Assembly: GCA_049322915.1 (NCBI GenBank)
Contig: JBMOPW010000035.1
Span: forward strand, 171,629-235,628
DNA from: Candidatus Zhuqueibacterota bacterium
Lineage (GTDB): Bacteria; Zhuqueibacterota; Zhuqueibacteria; Thermofontimicrobiales; Thermofontimicrobiaceae
Direction of reading: 5' to 3'
DNA length: 64,000 nt
Below the pieces are notes generated by a model. That model was given only the letters and a program-made list of their open reading frames with translations, had not been told where the DNA came from and searched no databases. Of the stretch, positions 19,905 through 55,178 are shown one piece after another. The first letter of the stretch is position 1, and each line of letters begins with the position of its first letter. A program made the translations under genes and the position numbers.

Positions 19905-19906
19905 GC

Positions 19907-32326: not shown

Positions 32327-34642
32327 CTACTTCAGGAGAAGCATTTTCATTGTCTTCGAATAATCGCCAGCTTCGATTCGGTAGAAGTAAATACCACCGG
32401 ATACATTGCGACCGGTGTAGTCTTTGGCATCCCAGGAAACGGAGTAATTGCCAGCGACTTTGTATCCATTCACCAGGGTGGCAACTTCCTGTCCCAGCAT
32501 GTTATAAACTCTCACCGTAACCATCGAGAATTTCGGGATCGAATAGGTGATCATCGTGGTCGGGTTGAACGGGTTGGGATAGTTCTGACCCAGCGAATAG
32601 TTTTCCGGCCGAACCGTGCCGGTAATTAAATCATCAACCGCCAATTTAATCGGGGGTTCTTCCACATCGAGCGGTGGGTCTTCCGTGAATGTATCTGTCG
32701 GGAATACCCATGCATTTGGGAATGTACCATCCACGTTGGGTTCGATATAGCGAGTGCGATACCGGCCGAAATCAAATCCGCCGCCTTCGACGATATCACC
32801 ATACTTAAACGCATATTCCATACCGTAAATCGTTGGGCCGTGAATCTGGAACGAACCAGTGTAAATGAGGTCGCCATCCGGATCGGTGAATTCAGCAAGC
32901 GTATCGGCGTAAGGGACATATCCCTGGCCGACTGCCCAATGGGGATCTTGCGGCTGAATTTTCACTGTATCTGTGGCAGGATTGAACGGTACGGCAAGAG
33001 TCAATGCCGGATTCATGTCGACATTGAATGTCAGGGTGATAACCTGTCCTAAAGGAATCACACCGCCATGAGGAATATCGTTCATGTATGAAATCGGAGC
33101 TTCCTGATTGGGAGTGCCCGCAAATTTCAGGAATCGGTTACCACCGCCCTGGGTGTAAGGCACTTCATAACCCCAGTCAGCTTCCTTCCATTTTGATGTA
33201 TCGGCGTAATTGATGTAGTATTTGTAATACACATTGTCACCAACAATTCCTTTGTTGGTCATGATGCGTTCGTACATCATTGTGCCGGGGAATCGTTCCA
33301 GGTAATCGCCAGAAGCCCAGCCATTAAAGCCGCCGCGGATCATCAAGGAATCCAGGTTACGATCGAAGAATCCAGCGTTTTCCCAGACTTCCATATCGAC
33401 GGTGAACAGGATGGCGCCTTCTTTGGTCACGCCACTGAATTCATCATCGCGATCGAAATAAACCGGGTCCAGTGTTGTATTAACACCAGGATTGGCCAAT
33501 TCGCGGTTGGGATCGCCTTCCCACATGTCTGTGCCATCGGCTTTGTGAATCACGTACTTGTAGTAGAGAGTCGGTTCTGTACCAACGTTAGCAGCGACAG
33601 AATAGATGCTATCTGCATCAGCATCGAGTAATTCATCGGCATTGCCAGCCCAGCCGTTGAAATTGCCGCGAATAACGATGATATCCGAACCGGGGACGAA
33701 TACTTCTTCGCGCATTTTAATGCTCATGTCGCACTGGAACGTGACAAACACATCGCCGGGAGGAGTATACTGATCGTCGCGATCAAAGAAAACCACGGGC
33801 AGTGTCTGGGTTCCGCTATTGGCGAATTCGCGATTGGGATCGCTTTCCCACACATCGCTGCCATCGGCTTTGTGAATCACATGTTTATAGTAAATCGTCG
33901 CTTCCATTGTGCCGACATTGAAGGTGCCGGTGTAAATGGTGTCAGCATTGGCATCAGTCAACTGCTCATTGTTGCCGCCCCAGCCGTTGAAATTACCGCG
34001 AACAACCACGATATCTCCAGCCGGATCGAATGACGCTTCGCGCTGTTTGATGCTCATGTCGCACTGGAACGTTACCATATTGCCGACGCCAACCACATTG
34101 ATCGGATTCGCCAGATTGACGGCGTAATACGTTGGGTCTGTGAAATCCAGAGCCGCATTGGTGACAAAGTAACCAATGTTGTAATCGCCGGATGTATTGC
34201 CGACGGTAAAATCAACGTAAAGATCAGCATAGCCTGTATCCAGAGCCGCGGCAAACGGTTGAGAGGACTGGTAGACAACCCAGTTCATTCCGGCCGGCGC
34301 CGGATAGCGTACGTTCAACGAGTCGGTCCAGTAATCGACCTGGCCGCCCGGATCGTTATCCGCGCTATCCGGATGCAGGAATGTGCAAAAATCCGGACCG
34401 TAATCGCCTGAGAAAAATACTGAATCTACAACCCAGCCGGTGGGAATTAACAATCCGACGATGCCGTAGTGCGCATTCGCGTCTATACCCTCTGTACGAA
34501 CTTCGAGGTAGGTCTGAATCTTGTCGCCACCATTGGCAGTCGTTGCCTGATCGATGCTTAAGATCGTAAAGCAACCGCTAATCAACGGGAGCAGCATTAC
34601 GAGACTCAGCAAACCCAGTAATTTAGTAGTGTTGAGCTTCAT
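32327..34642 (-). CDS. Secreted protein with tandem CBM20-like (starch-binding-type) domains and T9SS type A/FlgD-Ig-like C-terminal domain
   Basis: Repeated VTFQCDM..RGNFNGW..YYK.VI..WE..PNR modules; C-terminal YSLGQNYPNPFNPTT...SGGIYFYRI...KMLLLK. Confidence 0.75.
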   Translation of the reverse strand: MKLNTTKLLGLLSLVMLLPLISGCFTILSIDQATTANGGDKIQTYLEVRTEGIDANAHYGIVGLLIPTGWVVDSVFFSGDYGPDFCTFLHPDSADNDPGGQVDYWTDSLNVRYPAPAGMNWVVYQSSQPFAAALDTGYADLYVDFTVGNTSGDYNIGYFVTNAALDFTDPTYYAVNLANPINVVGVGNMVTFQCDMSIKQREASFDPAGDIVVVRGNFNGWGGNNEQLTDANADTIYTGTFNVGTMEATIYYKHVIHKADGSDVWESDPNREFANSGTQTLPVVFFDRDDQYTPPGDVFVTFQCDMSIKMREEVFVPGSDIIVIRGNFNGWAGNADELLDADADSIYSVAANVGTEPTLYYKYVIHKADGTDMWEGDPNRELANPGVNTTLDPVYFDRDDEFSGVTKEGAILFTVDMEVWENAGFFDRNLDSLMIRGGFNGWASGDYLERFPGTMMYERIMTNKGIVGDNVYYKYYINYADTSKWKEADWGYEVPYTQGGGNRFLKFAGTPNQEAPISYMNDIPHGGVIPLGQVITLTFNVDMNPALTLAVPFNPATDTVKIQPQDPHWAVGQGYVPYADTLAEFTDPDGDLIYTGSFQIHGPTIYGMEYAFKYGDIVEGGGFDFGRYRTRYIEPNVDGTFPNAWVFPTDTFTEDPPLDVEEPPIKLAVDDLITGTVRPENYSLGQNYPNPFNPTTMITYSIPKFSMVTVRVYNMLGQEVATLVNGYKVAGNYSVSWDAKDYTGRNVSGGIYFYRIEAGDYSKTMKMLLLK
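33440..34075 (-). repeat. Intragenic ~330-nt domain duplication
   Basis: Identical 22-mer TGCTCATGTCGCACTGGAACGT at 33721 and 34051, plus further matching blocks. Confidence 0.85.
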
Positions 34643-34728
34643 CAATTTCCTCCAGATTTAGTTAATTGTGTAACGGTTATTGGCAATAAACTTTGTTACA
34701 GCAACACTCCAGTTTTTAGAAATGAAAT

Positions 34729-34798
34729 CACCTCCTTTGAACAACCTGAATTGCGTCAAAGTTTCATGTATTCGTTGTTTTGAGCACCACCTCCTTTG
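34729..34798 (-). promoter_or_regulatory. Two tandem strong Shine-Dalgarno-like motifs in an untranslated region
   Basis: CAAAGGAGGTG on the minus strand at 34788-34798 and 34729-34739, with no properly spaced ATG. Confidence 0.6.
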
Positions 34799-35140
34799 GA
34801 GCATTAAATTCATATTTCTGAAATAAACGATCTCTGCCGCTTCCGAGTCTGTTCGAACAAGGATACCTGGTACAGAATGATTGATCTTTCAACAACGGCC
34901 GTGGTCGCGCCTAATCGCCTGTGCCCATCACTTTCTTCCATGAACGCGATGTCAGATTTCAGTATCTTTCCGGCACAGCTCGCGATTAGCGCTGTCAGCG
35001 ATGCTGCATTCAGCGCTAACAGTGTTCGATGCGCTTCGAGAAAATCGACAGGGCAAGCGACAATTCATCATGGTGACCCGGTTGGTCAGCCGTCACTGAT
35101 TGAAAAGCGGTTAACGGCCGACCGATATTCTCAAACCAGG

Positions 35141-36172
35141 CTAAAACTTCACTGCCACAGTGAATTGGTGGATATCATTCAAATGAACAAATTGCTCATA
35201 AGCGTAATCAATTTTCAAACGCCTTCCGCCATCCATAAAATAATTAAAACCAATGCCAACTCCATACTTTTCTTCGCGGTCTTTCATTCCCAGCGATTTA
35301 ATGCCTCCGCGAAACGACACAATGTTCCGAAGCGTCGAATATTCGCCGCCGACATTGATCGACTCGGTATTATCATTGGGATGCAGGCCATCCACAGCCA
35401 GGACCAGCCGATTGAAATCCGTATCGATGATATCTTTGGAAACGCCGATGCGCATGGTCAGCGGCAGATCGAATTTATCGGTGGCAAGATAGGCATTGAC
35501 GCTTTCATTATTGCCGGCCTGGCCGCCGGCAATGTCTTTCTGCACCAATAAATCATCTCCCAAAATTTGCATCTTTTGGCCAAAATTGGAAATGCTCGCG
35601 CCGAGTTTCAATCCCTGGAAAGGCGTCACGAACAGCGTGCCAATATCCAGAGCGATACCACTGGCATTGGTATTCCAGATATTCTCGGTGATGTATTTTG
35701 CTGTTGCGCCAATGGAAAAATTATCCGTCAGGTTGCGGGCGAACGTCAAGCCGGCGACAAAGCTCGCGGCGGAGAACGTTTCCCCGGTGCCCTCCGGATC
35801 GTATTCTGTGGTGATATCCATTTCATCCATGGTCATGGCGGTGAAACTCAAGCCAACGGTTCCGGCATTGCCCATGGAAATGGCCAGTCCGACGAAATCG
35901 AATCGGATATCTGCCAACCAGTTGGAATGCATGAACACAAATTCGTTTCGGTCCAATCGCGCAATGCCGGACGGGTTCCAGTAAAGCGCTGTGGCATCAT
36001 CGGCGACCGAAACAAATGCGCCGCCCATACCGAGCGCACGGGATCCGACCGGGATGCTGAGCACCTTTGCCGCCGTTGTCCCAATTTTCGTGACTTCCTG
36101 ACTTTGAGCCGAAATCGATACAAGGAAAAGTACCAGCAGGCTCACAGCAACGCTTAATGTATATTTTCTCAC
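35141..36172 (-). CDS. PorV/PorQ (UPF0164) family outer-membrane beta-barrel, module 2
   Basis: L.IPVGSRALGMGGAFVS.ADDATALYWNPSG, alternating beta pattern, terminal Phe; GTG start. Confidence 0.88.
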   Translation of the reverse strand: MRKYTLSVAVSLLVLFLVSISAQSQEVTKIGTTAAKVLSIPVGSRALGMGGAFVSVADDATALYWNPSGIARLDRNEFVFMHSNWLADIRFDFVGLAISMGNAGTVGLSFTAMTMDEMDITTEYDPEGTGETFSAASFVAGLTFARNLTDNFSIGATAKYITENIWNTNASGIALDIGTLFVTPFQGLKLGASISNFGQKMQILGDDLLVQKDIAGGQAGNNESVNAYLATDKFDLPLTMRIGVSKDIIDTDFNRLVLAVDGLHPNDNTESINVGGEYSTLRNIVSFRGGIKSLGMKDREEKYGVGIGFNYFMDGGRRLKIDYAYEQFVHLNDIHQFTVAVKF

Positions 36173-36187
36173 AGCGACTCTCCTGTT

Positions 36188-39100
36188 TTATTTGATGATT
36201 GCAAATTTCCCGATCTTTTCTCCGATACCCGGGGCGTCCACATGAAAGATGTAAACGCCATAGGCCAATGTCAGATTATCCCGCGTCAGGACATCCCATT
36301 CTGCGGATCCATTATCCATGAGACTGTGGTGGTCGATGGTATCCACCAACTCGCCATTCACCGTGAAAATGCGGATGGTACAATCTTTGGGCAGATGATT
36401 GAAATGAATGGAGCGCGGCCCGCGACCGGTCGTGAAAAAATTGCGAGGTTCCCAGATCGCGGCTGCCACATAGGGATTGGGCACGACTTTGATTCGGTCC
36501 AGATCATTCGCTGCTTGCTTGACATCGATTTTAGCGCTATCGGTTGTGAATTCAAAAATCACATTGGAGAGGAACGGCTTGGTCACAAACAAGTCGGCAA
36601 CATCGCCGCTTTGTGGATTTCGATGCAGCGTATCATAAACCACCTTGAAGCGCCAGCTCGGAGCCAGGTCAACGACAGCATTCTTTTCCATGAAAACGAT
36701 CACGTCCGTTTCCAGATACGACGCCGAAAACACGCCGTCATTGCCATCCGTTTCCCAGAATGCGAAAGCCACATTTGCCGAATCGGTCGTGTTGTACACT
36801 GTAAAATTCACTGGCCGCGGCTGCAGTTCAACCCCACGTCGAATGTATAAATACACCGAGGTGTCCATGCCAACGTCGCCGAAGGTGATCCGATAGTCGG
36901 CCGGGTTGGGGAAACCAATCCAGAAACCGGCCTGAAATGGGATCAGTGAGAGCGGGAAAACGTCATCATCGTTCCATTTGGAGAGCGACTGGTTGATCGC
37001 AATTTCGTCCTCGTTCTCCAGAATCAGTCTGAAACCATCGGTCATTGGGACTTCGTCGCTGCTCTTGAGTTTTTTGCATTGCCAGATGAGCGTATCCACC
37101 CCGCCCTGGCCTTCGTACGTCACATCGAACAGTGAAAAGTCCAGCGTCGTCAGCGTGTCGGTGTCGGTCAATTCTTTTCCTTCGATGAGCGTATCCCGGA
37201 ACGTGATGCGGTAGGTATGATTATCAGGAATTATTCGAGCGTCCACAATATCATAAGTGATAATGCCGGTCGTATTGCCAATGATCGGCTTTTCCAGATT
37301 CATCAATTGCGGAGCAACGTACCCGGCGGATACCGCATTGGGCACCACGCGCGCGACATTGCTTCCCATTTTCACCTCGCCGGTCGTTTCCACCGTAATG
37401 GGAATCGGCGTTTCGCTCGGCGGTATTTCAGCCCAAGCTGCTTCGCGGTCATAGGCGGTGACAGCGTAATAATACGCCTGGCCATTGATCACATCGGTAT
37501 CCACCCAGGAATGACGCAGGCCGGTATCATCGCCCATGTCAAAATGGGCGCCGTTGATGCTCAGCGAATCCAGCCCTTTGATGCCATTGGCCAGGTCAAA
37601 TTGCGCCACTGGCCGATAGTAGGTATAATTGCCGTCCGCATCGGTGATGGAGTAGGCATCTTCAAACGCCGGGTCTGTGGCTTTGTAAATGCGGTACCCC
37701 TCGAAGTCGTAGCCTTCAGCGCCAATGTCCGACATGAATTTATCAAACGAGAGTTCAGATTTGCTATCCCAGTACAGGGTCACTTTGTTGTTCCCGGGTA
37801 TTGCCGTCAGCGTCGGGATGAGCGGCGCCGTGGCAAAGGTATAGTCGAGATCGTATGTCTTCTGGGACATATTTCTATTTCGCATGGCGTCGTCACTGTC
37901 CTGGCCCAAATTGACCGCCATGGACACACGCTCGCGCTGGCCTGCTTTCAGCGGAAAAAAGCCAGACGAGACGAACAGGTCAAACTCGCCGGTGTAATCG
38001 ACGGTGGGATCCCAGAATTTTCCCGGCGTCATCCATCGGCGCCAGGTATTATCATCCTGTTCCGTGTGAAAATCGCCTGCCGGCTGATACTGCACATTGG
38101 TCACGCCCAGTTGATCCGATTCAGACACGTCGGTTTTATCGATGTTCGGTTCCCCGGGCAAATCAGTGCCGGCCCCGCTGGTCGGTGCGCCATCGCTCTG
38201 CCCTTTGTCCACGGTCAGGATATCGCCATCCAGGCCCACATCATCATTGAATAAATCCCAGTCGCCGTCATCGTCGATAAAGTTTTCCCGGGATTCATCG
38301 ATCATTTCATCAATTCCTTCATCAATGAACTCGTCGACTGCATTGTTGCCGTCGTTGTCTTTGCCATCGGCGTAGCGTTTCCCCAAATCCTCGGCGCCGA
38401 CATTGTACAGCGTAATTCCATTGCCAGCCGTATAACGCCCGCCACTGCCAGCCGCCGCGTCAATCATTGCCTGGGTGATCACCGGACTATTCGCTTCCCC
38501 ATTGCCATTATTATCGATCCAGTCGCGATAGCCACTGCCCACATCGGAATTATCTTCATCGTACAAGCCGTTTGAATTATCATCTTTCCCATTGTCGACA
38601 GTTTCGCCGGCGATCATCTCGGAAGTGATCGTCGGACTGTCACTCTCCCCGTCGCCATCATTATCGATATGATCACGATACCCAACTCCCACCTGCGCGC
38701 CAAACGCGATGTGCGTTTGGTTTTCGTCGATCAATCCATTTTGATTGTCATCTATCTGATTCGTCGCATCTTCGTCGAAAATCATTGTCTCGGTGACTAT
38801 GGGGCTATTTTCCTCGCCATCACCATCGTTGTCAATGCCGTCGATGGCGTTGCCCGGCGTCTCCAGGAAGGATGTGGCAGCAACGCCCACCGGGTCGTCT
38901 CCGAAGGCGGTATTGCCCTGATTCGGCGGAGAATCGGTGCACCAGGCTACATCGTTGAGCAAATCGAAATCCGAATGATCATCCATATTGTCGCCATCAC
39001 CGCCGACAAGGTCGAATACGAACAACGTCACCGCTGCTTTATCCAGGTCTTTGGTCCCATCGTTTTTAATATCGTAAAGGACAAAAACCACATCGTTCAC

Positions 39101-39757
39101 CAGAATTTGAGACCACTGGAGCACACGTACATCCACCAACAGACCCAGACCGCGGCGGGTCAAATCCGTTGTATCCGGATAATACTCATACCGGTCATAC
39201 GTGTCATCGGATATTTTATAATAGAGCTCGTAGTCCGCCTTGAACTGGTTCTTTCCGAAATAACCGTTCCACGAACCAGTCCAACCCGGATCCTCTTCAT
39301 CGCCCATTTTATCGGGCCAGGTATCGGGCCAGGTTTTACGATCTTCGCCGGAAGCGGCCAGCGTTGTCAGAGCGATGTCATCGGAATTGGGATTGCAATA
39401 CTCTTTGATCGGTTCCATTTGCCACGACTCGCCGGTATTGCTGCTCCGCGAATGGACAGCGGTGATGGGACGAATGGTGCCGTTTTCCAGCATCACCTCC
39501 GCGCCAATCATCAATCCGGTCTGAGCCAGATAGTGCTTGCCTGTATTTTTTGGCCATTCATAGGGAATGCCATCGCCGGGCTTGGTTCTGCCGGTCGTGC
39601 CGTTGTTCCAGATGGTCGTTCGGACAAGATTCCCGGCGATATCGGTCGTCCTTCGGTAACTGGAACTGCCGCGTTCATCGCTTGGCACATGCTGGGCAAA
39701 GACGGGCAAAGTCCAGATGAGAAAAAACATCACGAGAAAAATGCGCTTTACAGCCAT
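36188..39757 (-). CDS. Large secreted acidic protein with DxxDNDGDG repeats, Fn3-like domain and T9SS-like CTD, module 2
   Basis: Signal peptide; ~7 D-x-D-N/D-G repeats; PTLTAIPGNNKVTLYWD; IKVVPNPY...GVYIFHV...GKFAIIK. Confidence 0.75.
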   Translation of the reverse strand: MAVKRIFLVMFFLIWTLPVFAQHVPSDERGSSSYRRTTDIAGNLVRTTIWNNGTTGRTKPGDGIPYEWPKNTGKHYLAQTGLMIGAEVMLENGTIRPITAVHSRSSNTGESWQMEPIKEYCNPNSDDIALTTLAASGEDRKTWPDTWPDKMGDEEDPGWTGSWNGYFGKNQFKADYELYYKISDDTYDRYEYYPDTTDLTRRGLGLLVDVRVLQWSQILVNDVVFVLYDIKNDGTKDLDKAAVTLFVFDLVGGDGDNMDDHSDFDLLNDVAWCTDSPPNQGNTAFGDDPVGVAATSFLETPGNAIDGIDNDGDGEENSPIVTETMIFDEDATNQIDDNQNGLIDENQTHIAFGAQVGVGYRDHIDNDGDGESDSPTITSEMIAGETVDNGKDDNSNGLYDEDNSDVGSGYRDWIDNNGNGEANSPVITQAMIDAAAGSGGRYTAGNGITLYNVGAEDLGKRYADGKDNDGNNAVDEFIDEGIDEMIDESRENFIDDDGDWDLFNDDVGLDGDILTVDKGQSDGAPTSGAGTDLPGEPNIDKTDVSESDQLGVTNVQYQPAGDFHTEQDDNTWRRWMTPGKFWDPTVDYTGEFDLFVSSGFFPLKAGQRERVSMAVNLGQDSDDAMRNRNMSQKTYDLDYTFATAPLIPTLTAIPGNNKVTLYWDSKSELSFDKFMSDIGAEGYDFEGYRIYKATDPAFEDAYSITDADGNYTYYRPVAQFDLANGIKGLDSLSINGAHFDMGDDTGLRHSWVDTDVINGQAYYYAVTAYDREAAWAEIPPSETPIPITVETTGEVKMGSNVARVVPNAVSAGYVAPQLMNLEKPIIGNTTGIITYDIVDARIIPDNHTYRITFRDTLIEGKELTDTDTLTTLDFSLFDVTYEGQGGVDTLIWQCKKLKSSDEVPMTDGFRLILENEDEIAINQSLSKWNDDDVFPLSLIPFQAGFWIGFPNPADYRITFGDVGMDTSVYLYIRRGVELQPRPVNFTVYNTTDSANVAFAFWETDGNDGVFSASYLETDVIVFMEKNAVVDLAPSWRFKVVYDTLHRNPQSGDVADLFVTKPFLSNVIFEFTTDSAKIDVKQAANDLDRIKVVPNPYVAAAIWEPRNFFTTGRGPRSIHFNHLPKDCTIRIFTVNGELVDTIDHHSLMDNGSAEWDVLTRDNLTLAYGVYIFHVDAPGIGEKIGKFAIIK

Positions 39758-46288: not shown

Positions 46289-47308
46289 TTAAAATTCCAG
46301 CGCAACGGTGAATTGCTGAATTTCGCTCAGCACGCCAAAGTCCTGGTACGCGTAATTCAATTTGATCCGGAGCCCGCTGATGAGCGAATAGTAAAATCCG
46401 GCGCCCATGGCGATCCCTTCCTCAGAATCTTCGGCGAATAGCGTCTTGTAGCCTGCGCTCAAAGAGAACATATTCCTGAACAGATACATGCCGCCCAGGT
46501 TGATGAATTCGACATCGTCATTGGGATGGAGCGCGTCCACAGCGATGATCAAATTGCTGTCGCCCATGCCTTTGAGCACATCCATGGACATGCCAACACG
46601 GAAGAGCAATGGTAAATCGTACGCTTCCGTCTTCAGTTCGGCATTGATATTCTCATTGTTGCCGGCAATGATGGGATTGGTATCCACCTGCAGAATCAGG
46701 TCGCGACCGCTCATCCGCATTTTCGTGCCAAAATTGGAAATGTTCATTCCAATCCTGAGTCCATTGAACTGCGTGATGAACTGGGTTCCCACATCAAAGG
46801 CAAGGCCGGAAGCGGATGAATTGTAAATGAATTCATGGATGTATTTCACATTGCCGCCGATATTGAATCGATCGGTCAAACGCCGGGCATAGGTTAAATT
46901 GAACGCATACGCTCCGGCGGAAAATAACTCGCCGTTACCATCAGGATACTCCACGGTAGTGCGTTCCATATCATCCATCGTGAGGAACGTTGCGCCGGCA
47001 CCGATGGTTCCGAAAGAAAGCGGCACCACAATTCCAGCGAAATTGAAACTCATATCGGCAATCCAGCGATTGTGCGTGAACACAGCCTCGTTGTTATCCA
47101 CATTGGCAATGCCAGAAGGATTCCAATACATGGCGGTCGCATCGTCCGCCGAAGAGACGTAGGCGCTGCCCATGCCAATCGCCCGTGCGCCGACATCGAT
47201 ATTGAGAAAACCAGCCGCGGTCGTGCCGACTTTAGTCACCTGGCTGAATCCCTGAACAGGTATTCCGAAAATCAATATCATTAAAGCCAGAAAAAATATC
47301 TTCTTCAT
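46289..47308 (-). CDS. PorV/PorQ (UPF0164) family outer-membrane beta-barrel, module 1
   Basis: FLNIDVGARAIGMG, ADDATAMYWNPSG, terminal Phe; paralog of 35141-36172. Confidence 0.88.
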   Translation of the reverse strand: MKKIFFLALMILIFGIPVQGFSQVTKVGTTAAGFLNIDVGARAIGMGSAYVSSADDATAMYWNPSGIANVDNNEAVFTHNRWIADMSFNFAGIVVPLSFGTIGAGATFLTMDDMERTTVEYPDGNGELFSAGAYAFNLTYARRLTDRFNIGGNVKYIHEFIYNSSASGLAFDVGTQFITQFNGLRIGMNISNFGTKMRMSGRDLILQVDTNPIIAGNNENINAELKTEAYDLPLLFRVGMSMDVLKGMGDSNLIIAVDALHPNDDVEFINLGGMYLFRNMFSLSAGYKTLFAEDSEEGIAMGAGFYYSLISGLRIKLNYAYQDFGVLSEIQQFTVALEF

Positions 47309-47328: not shown

Positions 47329-50300
47329 TTATTTAATAACACCGAATTTTCCAATTTTTTGACCGTGTTTTCCAGCGTCCACATGGTAGACATAAACGCC
47401 ATAGGCGATATCCAACTCATCTTTTGTGAGCATGTCCCAGATTTCCGTGCCGTTCCAGATATTCATATGGTCGCCGGAGGTGATGGAATTGTGTTCAATG
47501 ACGTCCACCAATTGCCCGCGGACATTGAAAATCTTTATCGTGCACTGTGGCGGCAGATGGATGAAATGCAAATGCCTGGGGCCGTGACCGCTGGAATAAG
47601 GATTGAGCGGTTCCCAACTGTTGGTTACAATGTAAGGATTGGGCACAACTTTGATATCCTCCATTTGCGCAGCAACCAGATTGTCATCAATGGATTCTTT
47701 AAGCGATGTAAATTCCAGCACCATCGAAGATAGAAACGGTTTTTTGAGAATGATAGTCGCTGTATCGCCGGCGGCCGGAGCGTTCAACCGTTCATCGAAA
47801 ACAGTCTTGAATTCCCAGGTGACAATCAGCGAATCGTTCTCATTTTTCTCCATGAGGATGATTAAATCCTGGTTGTTGTAATCAGATGAAAAAACGCCGT
47901 CATTCCCGTGCGTTTCCCAGAAAGCAAAGTCGATGTATTTTTCGCTGGAGAGATTGTAGATTTTAAAGTTGACCGGCTTCGGCTGCAGTTGGACGGTTCT
48001 CACTTTGAGATAGGTCGAAGTGTCCGTCCCGACTTCATCGAAAATGACCCTGTAATCCGACGGAAGCATGGTTCCGGTGATGAATCCGTATTTGAACACT
48101 TTGAAGCCGATTGTGAACAGGCTGTCCCGGCTCCATGAGCTTTTCGTCCGATCGATTTCGATGAACCTGGCGTTGTTCACAAAAAGCTGAAATCCGTCGA
48201 TGATGGGCTGCTCGTCGTAAATGCTCAGCCTGCGGCTGCGATCGATCAACGTATCGATTTGTCCTTCCTCTTCCATCGTCACGTCTGCCAGCGTCCAGCA
48301 TTTCGTGGACAGCGTATCGCCTTCGGCAAGGCTGCCCACCTTGATGCTGTCTTCGAAGGTGACTCGGTAGCGGTGGTTCTCTTTTATCTGCGCCGGATCA
48401 ATGATGTGGTATGTAAATTCGCCGGAGGGTTTCAATTGGCTCACCGCACTAATCGTATCCAGATCAGCCGCAACAAAGCCAGCCGCCGGAGCCTCTGGCC
48501 GAACGATCTGCACGTTGCGGCTTCTGTCGATACCGCCTGAGGCGTCCACTGAAATTTGAATGCCGCATTCGGTCGGCGGGATTTGCTTGTCCGGCTTGGG
48601 ATCGCCGTGATCGTACGCTGTGAGCGCGTAATAATAGGTGTAGCCATTTTTCACATTGGTATCAACGAAGCTGTGTTTCAAGCCGGTGTTCGAGCCCAGA
48701 TAAAATTGAACTCCCTTCACCGGCACCACCTGATAATCTGTAGTTGAGTTATCCACGTTTGTATGCGTATAAATGAAGCCATCGTATTCATTGTTCAAAT
48801 CGTACTGGACGATGGGTTCCATGAACGTCTCGGAACCGAAGGCATCGGTGATTTCCACCATGTCCCGGAATTGCGTGTCCGTGGAGCGATAGAGCCGGTA
48901 GCCTTCGAAATCATAGCCGGTGATCGGATCAAACGATTCTTCAGCCAGATCATCCCAGTACAAAGTCACTCTATTATTTCCCGGAACCGCCACCAGCGTT
49001 GGTGTGTACGGCGCCTGAGCGAAATTGTAGTTTTCATTATAGGCCTTGGAGACCCATTCCTTGTTGCGATAGAGGTCGCTATTAGCATCGTAGCGGGGGC
49101 CATCGCCGAAGATCATGGCGATGGAGAATCGCTCCGTCTGCCCCACTTTCATCGGGAAATAGCCGGAGCCAAATTGGAAATCGGCGTCGGCATTTTCGAT
49201 GGAGGCGTTGAGGTAGCCCGGCTTCATGTAGCGCCATATCTTGACATCATCGTGCAGCGGAACAGCGTCGAACGGTTTGAAGAAATAGAAGCTGGTCAAA
49301 CCGATCATGTCGGTTTCATCAATATCGGTCTTGTCCACCCGTGGTTCCCCGGGCAGATTGGTGCCAGCGCCGGATGTGGGCATTCCATCGCCCTCTCCTG
49401 TATCGCCTGTGCCGGCTTTACCATCCAGCCCAACGTCATCGGCGAGAATATCCCAGTCGTTGTCGTTATCGATCTCATCATCGCGACGTTCGTCGATCAA
49501 AGGATTGCCCATACCGCCGCCGGCAATATAGTCCTTGTAAGGCAAATCGACGTACAGGTAAACGTGCGTCGTATCAGGGGCAGTACCGATGGTGGCGCCG
49601 TTGCTTTCATCGATAATCCCGTTCAAATTGTTGTCGATATTATCGTGAGCAATCTCACGCACTGTCTGTCCCGGATTCACTGTCACAACTTTGCCGTTGT
49701 ACGTATAGGTCACGCCCTGTTCCGGCATAGTGGTGACCGTTCGTTCGTAGCTGTCGTAATCAATTAAAACGACCTGGTCGCCCACGCTGATGATTTTCGC
49801 ATCGAACATATCTTCAGAAATTGTGGGACCGCCGAAAGCGCCTCCATCCCCGTCATTATCGATACCGTCATAGGGATTTCCCGGGCTTTCCAGAAATGCG
49901 TAGCCGAGAACACCCACCGGGCCCCATCCGCCCTGTCCGATAGCAGGCTCAAAGTCCCATGTGAACGCCAGATCCTCAACCAGGTCGTAATCAGCGCAAT
50001 CATCATTAAAATCCCCCTGGTTGGTTCTGGTATTGCCCATCATATTTCCGATCATCATGCCGAACACCATTTTATCGTAATTCGTGGTGCCGATATTGGT
50101 GATATCGTAGAGCCAGAACAGCGCATCTTCCACCAGTGCATTGGACCACTGGAACCCGCGCACCGTGGCTCTCAGGCCCAGGCCGCGGCGCAGCGTATCT
50201 GTGCTGTCCGGGTAGAATGGGTATTCCGCGTCCTGATAATCGTCCATCACGTAATAGCTCTCCTGATCGGCATTAAATACATCCTTGCCAAAATAGCCAT

Positions 50301-50829
50301 TCCAGGCGCCTGGCCAACCGGGATCGACCATGTCCTCCAATTTGTCCGGCCATGAAGCGGGCCAGGTCATGCGGTATTTCGTGCTGGCGTTGAGGTCGGT
50401 CATGGCGACATCCTCGCTATCCGGATTGGCATAACCGGGCAGAGGCATCCAGGTGTACCATTCGCCATTGGGGCCAATTTCACCGCGGCGCGCGGAACCA
50501 CTGCCTTTTTGCGGGCCGTCCGGCGTAATCACAATGGGCAGGCCCTTGACGCCGATGGAATCGATGAATGTCCCCACGATGGTACAGGCGTCGCCGACGT
50601 AAATATGGCCGGTATTCTTCGGCCATTCTCCACCAAAGTCATTGGGGCTGTCTTCTTTTCTTCCAAAAAAGCCGGTGTTGTAAAACGTGGTCTTAATCTG
50701 GTTGCCGGAATGCAGTCCGCTGCGCACCTCCCGTACATCGCCATGCGTTGTAATCTGTCCCAGGGCGAACTCGAGGACGAACAAAGTGCAATATATAGTC
50801 GTCAATGTAATTGTTGACAATTTTCTCAT
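47329..50829 (-). CDS. Large secreted acidic protein with DxxDNDGDG repeats, Fn3-like domain and T9SS-like CTD, module 1
   Basis: Paralog of 36188-39757 (EWPKNTG, WPDK..DPGW.G.WNGYFGK, PTSGAGT.LPGEP); IKVVPNPY...GKFGVIK. Confidence 0.75.
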   Translation of the reverse strand: MRKLSTITLTTIYCTLFVLEFALGQITTHGDVREVRSGLHSGNQIKTTFYNTGFFGRKEDSPNDFGGEWPKNTGHIYVGDACTIVGTFIDSIGVKGLPIVITPDGPQKGSGSARRGEIGPNGEWYTWMPLPGYANPDSEDVAMTDLNASTKYRMTWPASWPDKLEDMVDPGWPGAWNGYFGKDVFNADQESYYVMDDYQDAEYPFYPDSTDTLRRGLGLRATVRGFQWSNALVEDALFWLYDITNIGTTNYDKMVFGMMIGNMMGNTRTNQGDFNDDCADYDLVEDLAFTWDFEPAIGQGGWGPVGVLGYAFLESPGNPYDGIDNDGDGGAFGGPTISEDMFDAKIISVGDQVVLIDYDSYERTVTTMPEQGVTYTYNGKVVTVNPGQTVREIAHDNIDNNLNGIIDESNGATIGTAPDTTHVYLYVDLPYKDYIAGGGMGNPLIDERRDDEIDNDNDWDILADDVGLDGKAGTGDTGEGDGMPTSGAGTNLPGEPRVDKTDIDETDMIGLTSFYFFKPFDAVPLHDDVKIWRYMKPGYLNASIENADADFQFGSGYFPMKVGQTERFSIAMIFGDGPRYDANSDLYRNKEWVSKAYNENYNFAQAPYTPTLVAVPGNNRVTLYWDDLAEESFDPITGYDFEGYRLYRSTDTQFRDMVEITDAFGSETFMEPIVQYDLNNEYDGFIYTHTNVDNSTTDYQVVPVKGVQFYLGSNTGLKHSFVDTNVKNGYTYYYALTAYDHGDPKPDKQIPPTECGIQISVDASGGIDRSRNVQIVRPEAPAAGFVAADLDTISAVSQLKPSGEFTYHIIDPAQIKENHRYRVTFEDSIKVGSLAEGDTLSTKCWTLADVTMEEEGQIDTLIDRSRRLSIYDEQPIIDGFQLFVNNARFIEIDRTKSSWSRDSLFTIGFKVFKYGFITGTMLPSDYRVIFDEVGTDTSTYLKVRTVQLQPKPVNFKIYNLSSEKYIDFAFWETHGNDGVFSSDYNNQDLIILMEKNENDSLIVTWEFKTVFDERLNAPAAGDTATIILKKPFLSSMVLEFTSLKESIDDNLVAAQMEDIKVVPNPYIVTNSWEPLNPYSSGHGPRHLHFIHLPPQCTIKIFNVRGQLVDVIEHNSITSGDHMNIWNGTEIWDMLTKDELDIAYGVYVYHVDAGKHGQKIGKFGVIK

Positions 50830-50883: not shown

Positions 50884-53697
50884 TTAGAAATTCACTGCGA
50901 CGCCGAACTGAATCTGTCTCGGCTCGGTATACCATTCCGGGTGAGAGAAGTATTCTTCCAGCGTCCCCACTCGATTGGGATCCTCAAAAATGCCGACTGA
51001 ATCCAGTGTGTATTCCGGCGATCCGGTATCGGTGTACACCCATGTCGCATTGCGCATATCGAATAAATTGTAGACATTGGCGAACACGGAAAAATTCAAT
51101 CCTGAAATTTTCAGATTATAATTCACATACATATCGAATGAATACTGGTCCGGCAGGCGATCGCTGTTCTCGCGCAGTTCGTTGTAAGTCCCGCCGCCGG
51201 TGACGGTTCCTTTGGGGAATCGGGGCGTGTAGGGCAAACCGCTCCAATAACGTCCCAGGAAGGAAACGCGCCAGCCAGCCGTGCCAATGCTCACGGTGCC
51301 GTTCAAGGTGTGGCGACGATCCCAGCTCAGCGGAATGAGCTGTCGCCGCGGTTCCTGTTTTCCCTGTTCTGCATTGTACGCATCAGTGGGATTGGAGTAG
51401 CTGCCTTCGGTGATCATGAAGGAATAATCCACCGAGGCTGAAAAATAATTGGAGTAGCGCTTGTTCAACGCCAGTGTGAATCCGCGCACATTGGAATAAT
51501 CTTTATTTTCGAATTTCGAATATTTGACAGTGCCATAGGTTGAAATCAGCGGACTCGTTCCAACCCAGTCGCGGACGTCGCGGTAGAACATGGTGATGTC
51601 AATACCGACGTTCTCGGTCACCTGCTGCTGCAAGCCAATTTCGTACATCACCGTTTTCTGAGGTTTCAAATCCGAATTGCCAATCACGCTGGCGCCCTCA
51701 GCCTCGGTCACTTTGAAATCCGGGCTTGAGTACAGAAAATCGAACAGCGGTATCTGGAAAAAGTGACCATAGGAAAAATGAATCACACCGCGCTCGGTGA
51801 TGGGATAGGCGATGCCCAGCCGCGGGCTGAATTTGGATTTTGCCGAAGCGTCTTTATACCAGAAACTGCGACGTTCTTCCAGAGGAATGATATTCGACGG
51901 ATTATCGAGCTGGTCTTCGGGCAAATCCGGATTCACATAATAATGCTCTTCAAGAAGCGGAACATAGACATTGGGATCCATCGGATCGGCAAGCACCTGG
52001 CCGTCCGGGTCGAAATAATCGAAGCGCAGGCCGATGTTCACGATCATATCTTTCAATTCAATTTTATCCTGCACGTAAGCGGCAATTTCAACCGGCTTGT
52101 GATTGTAGAGATTGTGATAAGGCGTAGTAATCGATGGAACATAGGGTTCGAACGGGATGATCTCCGTATTGCCTTCCCGTTTCGGTTGAATATTGTACCA
52201 TTCCAGATTCAAATCGTGCTGGCGGAACTCCACGCCGGTTTTTATCTGATGTTCCCGATTCACCTGACTCACCAGATCGAATTTGCCAATCAGATACGAC
52301 GTGCTTCTGAAAAAATGATCCATCTTTGTACCGGCGTGATTGAAGCTGTACGACACCGGGTTGCGCAACGAATCAGGATGAACATACCCGGGCGGGCTGT
52401 CCGGATCTATGATATATCTTGTGCCGGTCGTATCTGTCGGATCGATAATATAGTCCACAGACTGAAGTGGATTTTCATATACATATTGTTCGTAATCAGT
52501 GTAGAATTTGGTGAATTTCAATTCATAAAAAGTCTTTGGCGAGAGAACATGGTTGAGGGTAACGATGTGCGTGTTGCCGGATTCGAATTTTTGATAATCG
52601 CCATCCGGAACGTATTTGAAACCGCTGTCGTAGGATCGAAATTCATTGGAATTCCAGAAAACGCCATAGCTCAATTTTATCATCGGCGACAGGCTGTACG
52701 ACAATTTTCCCTGGGTGCTTATCTTCTGAAACGGATTCAGGGCCACCCATTCATTTGTCGAAGCGTAGCCTGATGGAGCGAATTGCTTTCGGCCATAGAA
52801 CCAGCCTTCATTATCGAAATAGCGCACCATAGAGAAGAAATTCAGCTTGTTGTTGAAAAATGGCACCGGGCCGCTCAACGTCCCCTGGATATTGTACAGA
52901 GACAACGGATTGATTTTATCGATCCGGCTGAACAATTCGGAATCGTCACTGACATAGTCCCCCATGTAAAATCGCGCTTCACCAGTGTAGTCCGAACCGC
53001 CCTCTTTGGTCACGATATTGATGATGCCGGACATGGCCTGGCCGTATTCTGCGTTGAATGTGCCGCTCACCACCTGCAATTCCTGAATGGACGCGTTTTC
53101 CACTTCAACGCCCATATCGCCGGAATAAACATCCGTTGCGGCGATGCCATCGATCCAGAACGCGACTTCGCCGGAGCGCCCGCCGCGCACATGCAAGCCG
53201 CCCAACGGGTCCTTCACCAGACCGGCCTGCAATTCCAGCACATCGCCCATTTCCTGCACCGGTAAATTTTGAATTTCCTCAGCTCCTACAGCGGACAGCG
53301 AGGATGTCATATCCGGCTGGATAATTTCGCGCTCCGCCACAATCGTCACTTCCTCCCCCAGATCCATCACCTGGGTCTGAATTTCGAAATTAATGGTTGT
53401 CGTCAAATCGATGGAGACGCGGACATTCTCAATGCGCCTGGGCTGATAGCCCATCATCGACACTCTGAGCGTGTAAATGCCAGGCGGCACATTCATCACG
53501 ATATAATGCCCGTCAACATCCGTTGCCGCGCCCATCATGGTTCCATCGAGAATGATGTTGGCGCCGGGGAGTGTCATACCACTTTCAGCGTCTTTCACCA
53601 CGCCGGAAATCTTGCCGGTGGTGCCGGCATTCAAGGAACCCAAAAAACCAAAAGCAAGACACAAGACCATTGCTATTGATTTTACAAAGAATCTCAT
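50884..53697 (-). CDS. TonB-dependent receptor, module 1
   Basis: Same architecture as 39782-42544; SGTFNAEYGQAMSGIINIVTKEGG; terminal Phe; ATG after AAGGGG. Confidence 0.92.
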   Translation of the reverse strand: MRFFVKSIAMVLCLAFGFLGSLNAGTTGKISGVVKDAESGMTLPGANIILDGTMMGAATDVDGHYIVMNVPPGIYTLRVSMMGYQPRRIENVRVSIDLTTTINFEIQTQVMDLGEEVTIVAEREIIQPDMTSSLSAVGAEEIQNLPVQEMGDVLELQAGLVKDPLGGLHVRGGRSGEVAFWIDGIAATDVYSGDMGVEVENASIQELQVVSGTFNAEYGQAMSGIINIVTKEGGSDYTGEARFYMGDYVSDDSELFSRIDKINPLSLYNIQGTLSGPVPFFNNKLNFFSMVRYFDNEGWFYGRKQFAPSGYASTNEWVALNPFQKISTQGKLSYSLSPMIKLSYGVFWNSNEFRSYDSGFKYVPDGDYQKFESGNTHIVTLNHVLSPKTFYELKFTKFYTDYEQYVYENPLQSVDYIIDPTDTTGTRYIIDPDSPPGYVHPDSLRNPVSYSFNHAGTKMDHFFRSTSYLIGKFDLVSQVNREHQIKTGVEFRQHDLNLEWYNIQPKREGNTEIIPFEPYVPSITTPYHNLYNHKPVEIAAYVQDKIELKDMIVNIGLRFDYFDPDGQVLADPMDPNVYVPLLEEHYYVNPDLPEDQLDNPSNIIPLEERRSFWYKDASAKSKFSPRLGIAYPITERGVIHFSYGHFFQIPLFDFLYSSPDFKVTEAEGASVIGNSDLKPQKTVMYEIGLQQQVTENVGIDITMFYRDVRDWVGTSPLISTYGTVKYSKFENKDYSNVRGFTLALNKRYSNYFSASVDYSFMITEGSYSNPTDAYNAEQGKQEPRRQLIPLSWDRRHTLNGTVSIGTAGWRVSFLGRYWSGLPYTPRFPKGTVTGGGTYNELRENSDRLPDQYSFDMYVNYNLKISGLNFSVFANVYNLFDMRNATWVYTDTGSPEYTLDSVGIFEDPNRVGTLEEYFSHPEWYTEPRQIQFGVAVNF

Positions 53698-54000
53698 ACG
53701 CATTCCCCTTCTTAAAAAATCAACCACGTGTAAATGGATTAAGTGATTCGGCGACACTATGAATAACCAGTTGAAATTTCAGCACCTGTATTATTATTGG
53801 CCATACGCGTTATGGCCCGTCGCGACCGTCCACGACCGACTTTCACCAACGGAGAAAATGAATCGAAATCAGAATTCACCCGGCAGTTGTCCAATAGGCG
53901 AGCGCCCTGTTGGACCACCTGTCACTTTATCACAGAAGCAGCGCATGCAGCCGGATTGCCCGGCTATCTTTCGCCACTTCTGACCAGACGCCGGGTCATT

Positions 54001-55104
54001 CTAAGAATGAAACACAGGCGCCGGAAGTGGCTCTTCCCCTTTCTTTCCCTTCGAACTCTCTTTCCTCGTTGAAACGGATCCGCAGGTATCGCGGATGATG
54101 AGCTGGGTGTGAAAGAGCTTTTTAATGATCTTTTCAGAACTTTCAGGATTCTGGATTTTCTCGATGAGCCGATCCACAGCGAGCATCCCCATTTCAAACA
54201 TGGGCTGTTTCATCGTCGTCAAGCCCAGGTACTCCGATAGCTCGATCCCGTCGAAGCCAACAATAGCAATATCGTCCGGGATTTGCAAGCCACGCTCGCG
54301 TACAGCCTTCACTGCGCCGGCGGCCTGAATATCGCTGGAGATGAAAACCGCCGTCGGCCTGTTCTCTTTCAGATTCAGCAATTGCAGCATGGCTTCGTAG
54401 CCGGCGACCTTATTGAAGCCATGATTGTGATTCAGTTCTTTATTATCGGTTTGAAGCACTGTTATCACGCGCTCGTGAACGAATGGAATGTTGTTCTCCG
54501 CCAGCGCCGATTTGAATCCATCCAACCGAATTTTAGCCGGTACGCTATTCAAATTACCGTTGATCATGCCAATTCGGGTATGCCCCAGATCGATGAGATG
54601 CCGCGTGGCAATGAAGGCACCTTCGCGGTTTTCAATGGCAATGGAGTCCACTCTTTCGTGGAAGCTATCGACTAACACGATGGGAAATTTGGATTGAGTG
54701 AATTTTTTCACGTAGTCTTCAGAAATAGGCATGGAGACGAGCAAGACGCCATCGACTTTCCGCTCGCGCAGGGTCCGTTTCAGCACATCTGTTTCTTTTT
54801 CCATCTGCACGACGCTGTATAAAATCAGATCGAAACCATGACGATTCAGCGCCTGTTGAATACCATTAATTAATTCCAAATAAAAATAGCCGGTAAAGGA
54901 TGGGACGATGCAGGCCAAGCTGTTGGTGCGTTTGCGCGCCAATCCCTGCGCCATGGCATGGGGTTGATACTTCAGGTCTTTGATTACTTTGAGAACCTTT
55001 TCACGGGTTTTGGGAGAGATTTGAGGACTGTTATTGAGGACGCGAGATACGGTTCCAATTCCGACTCCCGCTCTCCTGGCGACATCATAAATTGTTACCG
55101 GCAT
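54001..55104 (-). CDS. LacI family transcriptional regulator
   Basis: TIYDVARRAGVGIGTVSRVLN HTH, YQP..MAQGL hinge, IPDDIAIVGFD, LTTM.QP. Confidence 0.97.
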   Translation of the reverse strand: MPVTIYDVARRAGVGIGTVSRVLNNSPQISPKTREKVLKVIKDLKYQPHAMAQGLARKRTNSLACIVPSFTGYFYLELINGIQQALNRHGFDLILYSVVQMEKETDVLKRTLRERKVDGVLLVSMPISEDYVKKFTQSKFPIVLVDSFHERVDSIAIENREGAFIATRHLIDLGHTRIGMINGNLNSVPAKIRLDGFKSALAENNIPFVHERVITVLQTDNKELNHNHGFNKVAGYEAMLQLLNLKENRPTAVFISSDIQAAGAVKAVRERGLQIPDDIAIVGFDGIELSEYLGLTTMKQPMFEMGMLAVDRLIEKIQNPESSEKIIKKLFHTQLIIRDTCGSVSTRKESSKGKKGEEPLPAPVFHS

Positions 55105-55123
55105 TTAAGTTATTCCCAATCTA

Positions 55124-55137
55124 TGGAAGCCCTTCCA
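55124..55137. promoter_or_regulatory. LacI-type operator palindrome
   Basis: TGGAAG-CC-CTTCCA between the promoter and the lacI start. Confidence 0.75.
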
Positions 55138-55149
55138 ATTTTTGTTCTT

Positions 55150-55178
55150 AGTATACAAATTTTTTTTCTATTTGTCAA
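55150..55178 (-). promoter_or_regulatory. Near-consensus sigma70 promoter heading the locus
   Basis: Minus strand TTGACA-N17-TATACT. Confidence 0.8.

Follow-up and report, generated by a model that had tools for sequence, protein, structure and literature searches.

A repeated gene unit of TonB-dependent receptor, large tail-bearing protein and PorV-like barrel in a locus without SusD of Candidatus Zhuqueibacterota

Main finding

A stretch of 64,000 nucleotides from a Candidatus Zhuqueibacterota bacterium (assembly GCA_049322915.1, contig JBMOPW010000035.1, positions 171,629 to 235,628; hereafter the window) contains a run of ten minus-strand genes, in which the same unit of three adjacent genes occurs twice: a TonB-dependent receptor (TBDR), a very large protein without family assignment (BIG), and an outer-membrane barrel of the PorV/PorQ family. 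That this triad is a real and general unit can be regarded as practically certain. The reading favoured here for the locus as a whole, which we hold to be reasonably probable, is that of a LacI-controlled alpha-glucan locus, in which BIG, exported by the T9SS (type IX secretion system) and docked on the barrel, would feed a classical TonB-dependent transporter. The architecture is well supported and the mechanism plausible; it would constitute a variant of the TonB transporter with surface partner that is built from T9SS parts.

Organization of the two modules

The run comprises lacI, the first triad (module 1), the genes of a glycoside hydrolase of family 13 (GH13) and of a peptidyl-prolyl isomerase (PPIase), the second triad (module 2), and the gene of a protein with two stretches of carbohydrate-binding module (CBM) family 20. 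Library scans covered the ten locus proteins (Pfam and NCBIfam) and the 31 other open reading frames (ORFs) of the window (Pfam). The two modules consist of the following features:

50884..53757, minus strand: TBDR1, TonB-dependent receptor with CarboxypepD_reg-like N-terminal domain, plug and 22-strand-type barrel (Pfam, NCBIfam)
47329..50829, minus strand: BIG1, 1166 aa, no family match; signal helix, predicted beta-supersandwich body with acidic DxDxDG-rich insert, more beta-sandwich domains, divergent C-terminal domain (CTD)
47332..47652, minus strand: C-terminal domain of BIG1 (residues ~1060-1166), a diverged type A CTD of the T9SS, with which BIG1 is predicted to dock on PorV-like1
46289..47308, minus strand: PorV-like1, outer-membrane barrel of the PorV/PorQ family (NF033709, 188.3 bits, cut-off 90)
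39782..42544, minus strand: TBDR2, paralog of TBDR1 (Pfam, NCBIfam; 48% identity)
36188..39757, minus strand: BIG2, 1189 aa, paralog of BIG1 (40% identity), member of a cross-phylum alpha-glucan ortholog group
35141..36172, minus strand: PorV-like2, PorV/PorQ-family barrel (NF033709, 195.7 bits, cut-off 90; 51% identity to PorV-like1)

A first-pass annotation of the window had described a co-oriented run from lacI to the CBM20 protein gene, with a gene order duplicated in diverged paralogs, gaps of 15-54 nt within the modules and a terminator at its end, and this description stands in all of its parts. All ten genes are situated on the minus strand, the intergenic gaps amount to 54 and 20 nt in module 1 and to 24 and 15 nt in module 2, the identities listed above (TBDR 48%, BIG 40%, PorV-like 51%) hold over the full length of the paralogs, and a hairpin with a T-run is found at 32298-32266. 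With the LacI regulator, the GH13 and the CBM20-CTD protein within one co-oriented run, the locus exhibits the co-localization typical of a polysaccharide utilization locus (PUL). Concerning TBDR1, the listed GTG start (53757) is likely too early: the Met at codon 19 (53703) opens a typical signal peptide, and the alignment with TBDR2 and 30 orthologs starts at this Met, 18 codons inside the listed frame.

Copies of the triad in the genome

Across the genome, the PorV/PorQ family model yields 30 matches above cut-off, and a BLASTP comparison of all ORFs finds 25 BIG-type ORFs, 18 of which are part of complete TBDR-BIG-barrel triads. The other seven comprise two cut by contig ends (C29, C34:268), one displaced from its TBDR-PorV pair (C7:45554) and four in tandem on C26. 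These four (C26:170124-188206; 1000-1044 aa) are followed by a TBDR gene, and the nearest PorV-family genes are situated 17 kb off; one of them, at C26:205276, clusters with the barrels of the triads in a quick tree.

The genes next to the triads vary from copy to copy, which is the pattern of substrate-specific uptake loci: found are two GH10 genes plus a symporter; GH16 with GH5 and CBM9; GH94 with a glycoamylase and CBM9, controlled by another LacI; GH38; a tricorn/S41 peptidase; M20 and S51 peptidases; GDSL esterases; and GWxTD proteins. Distances among the 18 triads are correlated for each pair of genes (Mantel r 0.83 for TBDR-BIG, 0.87 for TBDR-PorV and 0.82 for BIG-PorV, with 0 of 5000 permutations as high), from which it follows that the units are inherited and duplicated whole. 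Co-divergence of the three genes and linkage to carbohydrate-active enzymes (CAZymes), both named as checks in the first-pass annotation, are hence found, the latter also in foreign loci.

Two further observations concern the genome's copies. GWxTD proteins adjoin three triads without CAZymes (L080:14511-16007 on C2, L085:14318-15742 on C14 and L096:6127-7035 on C7). Some barrels are fused to extra domains, the PorV/PorQ matches above cut-off lying within frames of 641-998 aa (C13:82017-82853, C32:37034-37855, C3:149750-150601, C32:142082-142867 and C14:870774-871622).

Occurrence in other lineages and probable substrates

A scan of a genome collection confirmed 588 relatives, the best 80 of which, corresponding to 79 loci, were kept; neighbours were counted only in cases with enough flanking sequence. 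These foreign loci span KSB1, Calditrichota (including Caldithrix abyssi), Ignavibacteria/Melioribacter (including an isolate), Rhodothermales, WOR-3 and Stahlbacteria. Among the best 80 relatives, the gene before BIG is a TBDR in 64 of 64 cases and the gene after it is PorV-like in 68 of 72, such that the expected conservation of the triad elsewhere is borne out in several phyla. A PPIase gene, which immediately precedes that of the TBDR in 35 of 55 foreign loci, is a frequent fourth member, and in 40 of 59 the gene after the barrel encodes a CBM20-type CTD protein. BIG is present in 77 of 81 sampled genomes of the phylum (62 of the 65 of high quality), and likewise in each of five genomes from other lineages (an isolate of Melioribacter, a metagenome-assembled genome of Caldithrix abyssi, Rhodothermales, Stahlbacteria and WOR-3).

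Concerning the substrate, foreign triad loci adjoin GH10/GH43/CBM6, GH97 or GH130 genes. The alpha-glucan form, i.e., PPIase-TBDR-BIG-barrel-CBM20-CTD, often together with GH13 and LacI, recurs across phyla, and module 2 therefore belongs to a cross-phylum alpha-glucan locus. One carrier of a locus of the module 2 type, C. abyssi, grows on starch according to an excerpt of PMC5317091. The alpha-glucan substrate originally proposed for the entire locus is accordingly to be judged by module: it is likely for module 2, whereas for module 1, the closest relatives of which sit in xylan-type loci and the substrate of which is for this reason uncertain, it is possible at best with some doubt.

Beside the triads of non-starch loci, a protein of ~495-520 aa without Pfam match recurs, both in foreign loci (L008:1999-3492, L035:2141-3619, L063:3358-4845, L074:3414-4901) and in the own genome (L092:14108-15670, L094:14200-15753). 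It is encoded directly 5' of the TBDR gene in L063 and L092, after the barrel gene in L094, and further 5' of the TBDR gene, with a LacI gene in between, in L008, L035 and L074. The copy of L094 exhibits a weak BLASTP match to the PPIase (52 bits), and the protein is possibly a diverged chaperone in the place of the latter.

The large proteins and their tail

BIG1 matches no Pfam or NCBIfam family, and no curated CTD model is matched at E<=0.01 by the whole BIG1 and BIG2 proteins. Relatives of BIG1 are numerous: a library of 50% identity contains 3043 clusters at E<=0.001, 543 of them at <=1e-30; every source name is 'hypothetical protein', no precomputed Pfam domain is attached to them, and the neighbours in the ESM Atlas are unnamed too. 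In one ESM Atlas neighbour cluster (score 0.90), Por_Secre_tail is found in 61% of the members.

The AlphaFold2 (AF2) model of BIG1, built from 49 sequences (pLDDT 80.4, pTM 0.73), is all-beta past the N-terminal signal helix. In a VIA-align comparison with 48,161 chains, residues ~30-770 align to beta-supersandwich (galactose-mutarotase-like) domains, among them 8rf9_A (Z 19.5, root-mean-square deviation 3.7, 270 residues aligned), the dextran dextrinase 9ju0 (Z 18.9), 1lf6, a bacterial glucoamylase (18.3), the glucodextranase 1ulv (18.1), GH94 and GH65 phosphorylases (13.8-18.0; GH94 alone 16.7-18.0), and aldose epimerases and the periplasmic domain of YidC (~12-13). The matched domains are sugar-chain-handling or scaffold domains; in the enzymes among them, the supersandwich is an accessory N-terminal domain beside a helical catalytic domain. 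Whole-chain Foldseek of the same model returned only FN3/Ig-like receptor strings (TM 0.06-0.10), and the BIG profile found a single match at chance level among PDB sequences (E 0.26). Two candidate assignments were rejected: a GH15/GH65/GH94-type enzyme, the helical catalytic domain of which is absent from the model, and a SusD-like fold, SusD being a helical protein, the model all-beta and no SusD family matched.

Within the family, the stretch ~440-830 is the most conserved, and the N-terminal halves are variable among paralogs. Two near-invariant stretches are disordered in the BIG1 model, namely an acidic DxDxDG-rich loop (~445-510) and an insert in the CTD (~1065-1085). The DNDGDG/DxDxDG runs, which we take to resemble thrombospondin-type-3 or EF-like loops, might at a guess be calcium-binding repeats; Pfam scans of this region gave nothing beyond a metal-motif match of 0.041.

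Concerning the tail, the first-pass annotation had simply ascribed a CTD to the giant proteins. When taken alone, the BIG tails reach E 0.0016 with CHU_C and E 0.075 with Por_Secre_tail (13.8 bits, cut-off 27), both below threshold, and the BIG2 tail shows a faint match to the PorZ tail (E 0.0074). The ascription nevertheless receives support, though from profile-profile comparison only: by hhalign, the final 125 residues in 20 of the genome's BIG-type proteins are homologous to its canonical type A CTDs, 13 of which were compared, over 60 columns (probability 96.5%, E 7.7e-10). Both groups share a PNP(Y/F) start motif, after which BIG possesses an insert of ~15-25 residues. The corresponding machinery is also encoded: SprA reaches 893.6 bits, PorU is found twice (869 and 819 bits), one canonical PorV (258 bits, cut-off 250) is situated on C44, away from the triads, and 178 ORFs of the genome end in a CTD-type tail (BLASTP). 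The homology of the tails leads to the conclusion that BIG carries a diverged T9SS tail.

PorV-like barrels and their predicted docking

The two barrels of the locus match NF033709 over their full length and above cut-off. They remain below the equivalog cut-offs of both PorV (NF033710, 62-64 bits, cut-off 250) and PorQ (NF033711, 82-96 bits, cut-off 220), with slightly higher scores for the latter model. A profile of 32 triad barrels matches the PorV chains of Flavobacterium johnsoniae (6h3i, 8gl6-8gln) with E 2e-21. A quick tree, calculated from 28 members of the family in the genome, unites the 18 triad barrels, two partial ones and one other barrel on one branch (SH-aLRT 93), which is separate from the canonical PorV and from the best PorQ-like copy. 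The 'dedicated PorV' of the first-pass annotation is thus correct as to the PorV/PorQ family, but not in the strict sense of PorV or PorQ, and some BIG genes have no barrel of their own.

For PorV-like1 (alignment of 32) and residues 1030-1166 of BIG1, a complex was predicted in three runs alongside three controls. It reached an ipSAE of 0.91 in each run and 0.00 in the best control, where the mark applied is attained by 116 of 157 solved complexes and by 2 of 215 mismatched pairs; solved PorV-cargo complexes exist, such that this result shows likeness to their binding mode, but neither binding by this pair itself nor cognate specificity. The runs share at least 92% of contacts, with a partner pLDDT of at least 71, and the predicted interface on the tail comprises residues 1060-1069 (first strand), 1088-1108 and 1135-1166, including the middle strands 1099-1108 and 1135-1151 and the invariant C-terminus 1157-1166. 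The earlier suggestion that the large protein binds the adjacent PorV paralog agrees with these models, according to which the BIG tail quite probably docks on the neighbouring barrel.

Transporter class and SusD

The two TBDRs score 73.2 and 71.9 bits on the SusC/RagA model TIGR04056, far from its cut-off of 368.25, and the matches span only the N-terminal positions 2-119 and 2-209 of 981. In a PDB sequence search, only the plug segments of YncD and PqqU were matched. For the AF2 model of TBDR1 (939-957 aa; pLDDT 85.1, pTM 0.77), Foldseek places classical transporters closest, e.g., PqqU, PfeA, Cir, FepA and BtuB, and no SusC or RagA chain is among the 47 matches listed. To judge from these comparisons, the TBDRs of the locus are classical, non-SusC TonB-dependent transporters.

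SusD-type Pfam families are found neither among the ten locus proteins nor among the 31 other ORFs of the window, and PF07980 has 0 matches across the 6.25-Mb, 96.3%-complete genome, the Bacteroides thetaiotaomicron control being matched. The same family is absent from the three genomes sampled of the window's own family and present in 32 of the 81 of the phylum; of the five BIG-carrying genomes from other lineages, one possesses SusD. The description of the system as SusD-less consequently holds for window, genome and family, but not for the phylum. The triad is much more general than SusD in these groups, yet both can coexist.

Proposed mechanism and alternative explanations

According to the reading favoured here, BIG would be translocated over the inner membrane by Sec and over the outer one by the T9SS. 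The modified CTD of BIG would be kept and docked on the adjacent barrel, by which the protein, though devoid of a lipid anchor, would be retained at the surface. Oligomers would be bound by the supersandwich body and handed to the neighbouring TonB transporter, a classical non-SusC TBDR that would import them, while the CBM20-CTD protein would provide the cell surface with extra starch binding and the oligomers would be trimmed by the exported GH13. For the parvulin PPIase, an aid in the folding or assembly of large envelope proteins is probable. A SusD-like role of BIG, comparable also to that of BtuG or XusB for their transporters, is by analogy slightly favoured; its contact with the TBDR and its binding of sugar we infer from gene order, fold and analogy, and surface retention and the role of the PPIase are likewise assumed. 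Excerpts of a review (PMC10202324) offer models for such retention, as PorZ keeps its CTD on PorQ and that of PorU stays on PorV, and cognate PorV-like barrels may shield the CTD from cleavage; in an excerpt of PMC12578637, the FadL-type barrel BamG is described as a platform for surface proteins.

A bolder version of this reading would see in the triad an autonomous three-protein machine of the outer membrane, which would be the main coupling of capture and import in lineages of the FCB group (Fibrobacterota, Chlorobiota, Bacteroidota) outside Bacteroidia (KSB1, Calditrichota, Ignavibacteria, Rhodothermia, WOR-3 and others); this is conceivable, though on balance rather doubtful. In such a machine, the T9SS would deliver a non-lipidated lid or capture protein, the CTD of which would never be cleaved, a private FadL-type barrel would lock this CTD and pack against the transporter, and a dedicated parvulin would assist assembly. 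Contacts to the transporter would be made by the invariant CTD insert (W-E-P..N-P...G-x-G-P-R..H-F) and by the acidic DxDxDG loop.

Several points weigh against the reading in either version. Concerning export, the curated CTD models (PF18962/TIGR04183) remain under threshold on BIG1 and BIG2, and of the core T9SS genes that the first-pass annotation had proposed to look for, SprA, two PorU and PorV are found, whereas GldK gives only a partial match (128 bits, cut-off 350) and the TIGRFAMs of GldL, GldM and GldN have no match in the genome, being equally silent in the control genomes. The docking score may reflect memory of solved PorV-cargo complexes. Concerning the unity of the triad, four of 72 foreign BIG genes are not followed by a barrel gene (L003, L006, the second BIG of L011, and L026), the four tandem BIG genes on C26 precede a TBDR without an adjoining barrel, and co-divergence, although expected of interacting parts, is equally expected of any co-duplicated, tightly linked neighbours. 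Seven of the 25 BIG-type ORFs resemble BIG1 and BIG2 in the tail alone (BLASTP); their bodies differ, and a supersandwich cannot be assumed for all. As far as these comparisons go, the special tail and the barrel appear to be the constant features of the triad and the bodies to vary. SusD and triad co-occur in the phylum (32 of 81 genomes with PF07980), which implies that the triad is not simply a replacement of SusD. Finally, BIG1 and its barrel have their closest relatives in the GH10 locus on C34 and in foreign GH10/GH43/CBM6 loci.

Among the alternative explanations, BIG and barrel could be a free-standing pair for binding or adhesion, similar to SusE/F, which is co-regulated with the TBDR without forming a complex with it. 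The predicted docking indeed concerns BIG and barrel only, gene order varies (BIG is displaced on C7, and four BIG genes stand before one TBDR on C26), and canonical CBM-bearing T9SS cargo is plentiful in the same loci. Yet such ordinary CBM-CTD proteins do without a private barrel, a TBDR stands immediately 5' in 64 of 64 foreign cases and at gaps of 15-54 nt here, and the distances of the TBDRs track those of BIG and barrel as tightly as the latter two track each other (r 0.83-0.87), all of which renders a free-standing pair unlikely. Somewhat more improbable is that BIG is a surface enzyme of an unrecognized family (a glycanase, phosphorylase-like, lyase-like or, in some paralogs, a peptidase), which the barrel would merely anchor and the products of which the TBDR would take up without physical coupling. 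Carbohydrate-active enzyme domains are the best matches of the supersandwich, the conserved stretch ~440-830 could house an active site, and the locus encodes no recognizable secreted endo-amylase, its sole GH13 being of the oligosaccharide-trimming type and the CBM20 protein non-catalytic. However, the supersandwich of the matched enzymes is an accessory N-terminal domain, the BIG1 model is almost free of helices beyond the signal peptide, no catalytic family emerges from Pfam, NCBIfam or the PDB sequence profile, and the occurrence of one family body beside GH13, GH10, GH16, GH94 and peptidases speaks against a single chemistry.

Very improbable appears, lastly, a service of barrel and BIG in the biogenesis or gating of the TBDR, as an extracellular dome or an assembly platform comparable to BamG with BamH-K and helped by the PPIase. 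A PPIase gene is found together with the unit in 35 of 55 loci, BamG is, according to the excerpt of PMC12578637, a FadL-type barrel that bears surface proteins in a complex with two PPIases, and both barrels of the locus give weak NCBIfam matches to BamG (E 3e-4 and 3e-5), far under cut-off. Against this stand the 18 diverged copies per genome beside different degradative enzymes, which form a substrate-specific pattern, and the variable N-terminal halves of the BIG paralogs, which fit specificity.

Further genes and signals of the locus

The remaining features of the run, in the direction of transcription, are:

55150..55178, minus strand: sigma-70-like promoter 5' of lacI (TTGACA, 17 nt, TATACT), proposed from an 11/12 consensus match only
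54001..55104, minus strand: LacI-family regulator (LacI helix-turn-helix 3.8e-19, Peripla_BP_3 4.5e-31), under every equivalog cut-off
44305..46191, minus strand: GH13, alpha-glucan hydrolase of the neopullulanase/cyclomaltodextrinase/maltodextrin-glucosidase type, with N-terminal signal sequence (Pfam, NCBIfam)
42563..44329, minus strand: PPIase of the SurA/PrsA type (Pfam, NCBIfam), with two parvulin domains; its signal sequence ends in Cys
32327..34645, minus strand: non-catalytic CBM20 protein, 772 aa, a presumed starch-binding protein of the surface; signal of lipobox type (LISGC), DUF4961, two stretches of CBM20, canonical type A CTD of the T9SS (Por_Secre_tail)
32266..32298, minus strand: intrinsic terminator, read by eye (8-bp GC-rich stem 32298-32291/32279-32272, 11-nt loop, T6 at 32271-32266)

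The terminator starts ~30 nt past the stop codon of the CBM20 gene and was overlooked by the pattern scan because of its loop of 11 nt. Concerning a LacI operator, no convincing palindrome was found in the intergenic stretch between lacI and TBDR1. Within the gap of 495 nt between the PorV-like2 and CBM20 genes, an inverted repeat (TTAGCGCTG / CAGCGCTAA, arms 16 nt apart) is situated at 34986-35019, which could be an operator or an RNA hairpin. The CBM20 protein combines a signal of the canonical lipoprotein type (…LLPLISGC…; 34466-34645, minus strand) with a T9SS type A tail and thus bears two surface-anchoring signals.

Upstream of lacI follow, on the minus strand, a 316-aa ORF without Pfam match (55365-56312) and a second double-parvulin PPIase (56375-58129), 28% identical to that of the locus (BLASTP). 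The latter could be the module 1 counterpart of the PPIase before TBDR2, in which case the locus would reach to 58129. On the plus strand, a degradative run at 14130-30257 encodes a GH3 with PA14, an S9-type hydrolase, GH97, GH127, GH20 and a sodium:solute symporter. As SusB, the alpha-glucosidase of Bacteroides, belongs to GH97, the copy in the window may finish the alpha-glucan pathway.

Implications

SusC/SusD is the textbook model of polymer uptake for Bacteroidota and their kin, and pipelines for PUL prediction are keyed to this pair. Here, a unit without SusD and without SusC-type transporter is central to loci of the starch, xylan, beta-glucan, mannoside and peptide type, in phyla relevant to carbon turnover in sediments, hot springs and the subsurface, and the family of its middle protein, with ~3,000 clusters at 50% identity, has neither a name nor a Pfam model. 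If the proposed mechanism is true, the capacity for glycan uptake in these lineages is systematically missed or mislabelled, as in the 'SusD/SusE' of Melioribacter roseus (see below), the T9SS gains a role in the building of import machines beyond the secretion of enzymes and adhesins, and PorV/PorQ-type barrels gain one as general protein anchors; the autonomous three-protein machine would even be a second, independent solution to the problem solved by SusCD. The question is open to direct tests, since carriers are available in culture (Melioribacter, Caldithrix abyssi, Rhodothermus marinus).

Comparison with known systems

The architecture had been supposed to lack functional characterization, and no functional treatment was found; it has, however, been drawn before and probably also been mislabelled. 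Full-text literature searches gave no description of the triad as a unit beyond the legend of a figure of the R. marinus alginate locus, which draws the same architecture, unremarked, with hypA/hypB (excerpt of PMC9530828; likened by layout, not by the hypA sequence). In M. roseus, Mros0761-0759 were named 'SusC, SusD and SusE' of a starch operon, the next gene, Mros0758, carrying CBM48 (PMC3534657). Every Melioribacter locus fetched has the order TBDR-BIG-PorV-like followed by a CBM20/CBM48-CTD protein, and PF07980 has no match in either of the two Melioribacter genomes searched; on account of this order and this absence, Mros0760 and Mros0759 ('SusD' and 'SusE') are most probably BIG and PorV-like barrel, named by position. 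Neither PMC9530828, in the excerpt concerned, nor PMC3534657 treats or tests the three genes as a unit, and the main texts of PMC9012183 and PMC11683472 (KSB1/Zhuqueibacterota) and of PMC5317091 (C. abyssi) make no mention of PorV, T9SS, type IX or SusD.

The organization found here is similar to SusC/SusD (RagA/RagB) in that a TBDR gene stands beside the gene of a dedicated surface partner, together with a regulator, glycoside hydrolases and glycan-binding surface proteins, in that many diverged copies per genome occur beside different enzymes, including peptidases, and in the CarboxypepD_reg-like N-terminal domain of the TBDR. Despite this similarity, there are marked differences: the triad contains no SusD-family protein, its TBDR fails the SusC/RagA model, its partner is of ~1,170 aa, all-beta, without lipid anchor and, to judge from the tail, T9SS-exported, and in most loci the barrel gene is an obligatory third member.

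With regard to the barrel, PorQ-PorZ and PorV-PorU of Porphyromonas gingivalis are comparable, where a PorV/PorQ barrel holds a surface protein by its uncleaved CTD (excerpt of PMC10202324). The triad barrels belong to the same NCBIfam family, and PorZ (5m11) ranks eighth, with low TM, in the whole-chain Foldseek of BIG1; those pairs are, however, single-copy parts of the secretion system, whereas the pair of the triad is multiplied 18-fold, tied to a TBDR and situated in catabolic loci. In SprB-SprF of F. johnsoniae (type B CTD), a cargo gene equally adjoins its own barrel gene, the proposed anchor (PMC10202324, in excerpt), and the best, sub-threshold Pfam match of the BIG1 tail is the type B model CHU_C (E 0.0016). 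There, the barrels are of the PorP/SprF type, a TBDR is lacking and the cargo consists of gliding adhesins, whereas profile comparison shows the tail of BIG to be a homologue of the type A CTDs of its genome.

BtuB-BtuG and XusA-XusB of B. thetaiotaomicron, finally, share with the triad the combination of a classical-type TonB-dependent transporter with a dedicated extracellular partner, and 8blw_A, 8bmx_A and 9gbc_A are among the structural matches of TBDR1. Their partners, in contrast, are lipoproteins of other folds, without T9SS tail or third barrel, and serve vitamin and siderophore substrates.

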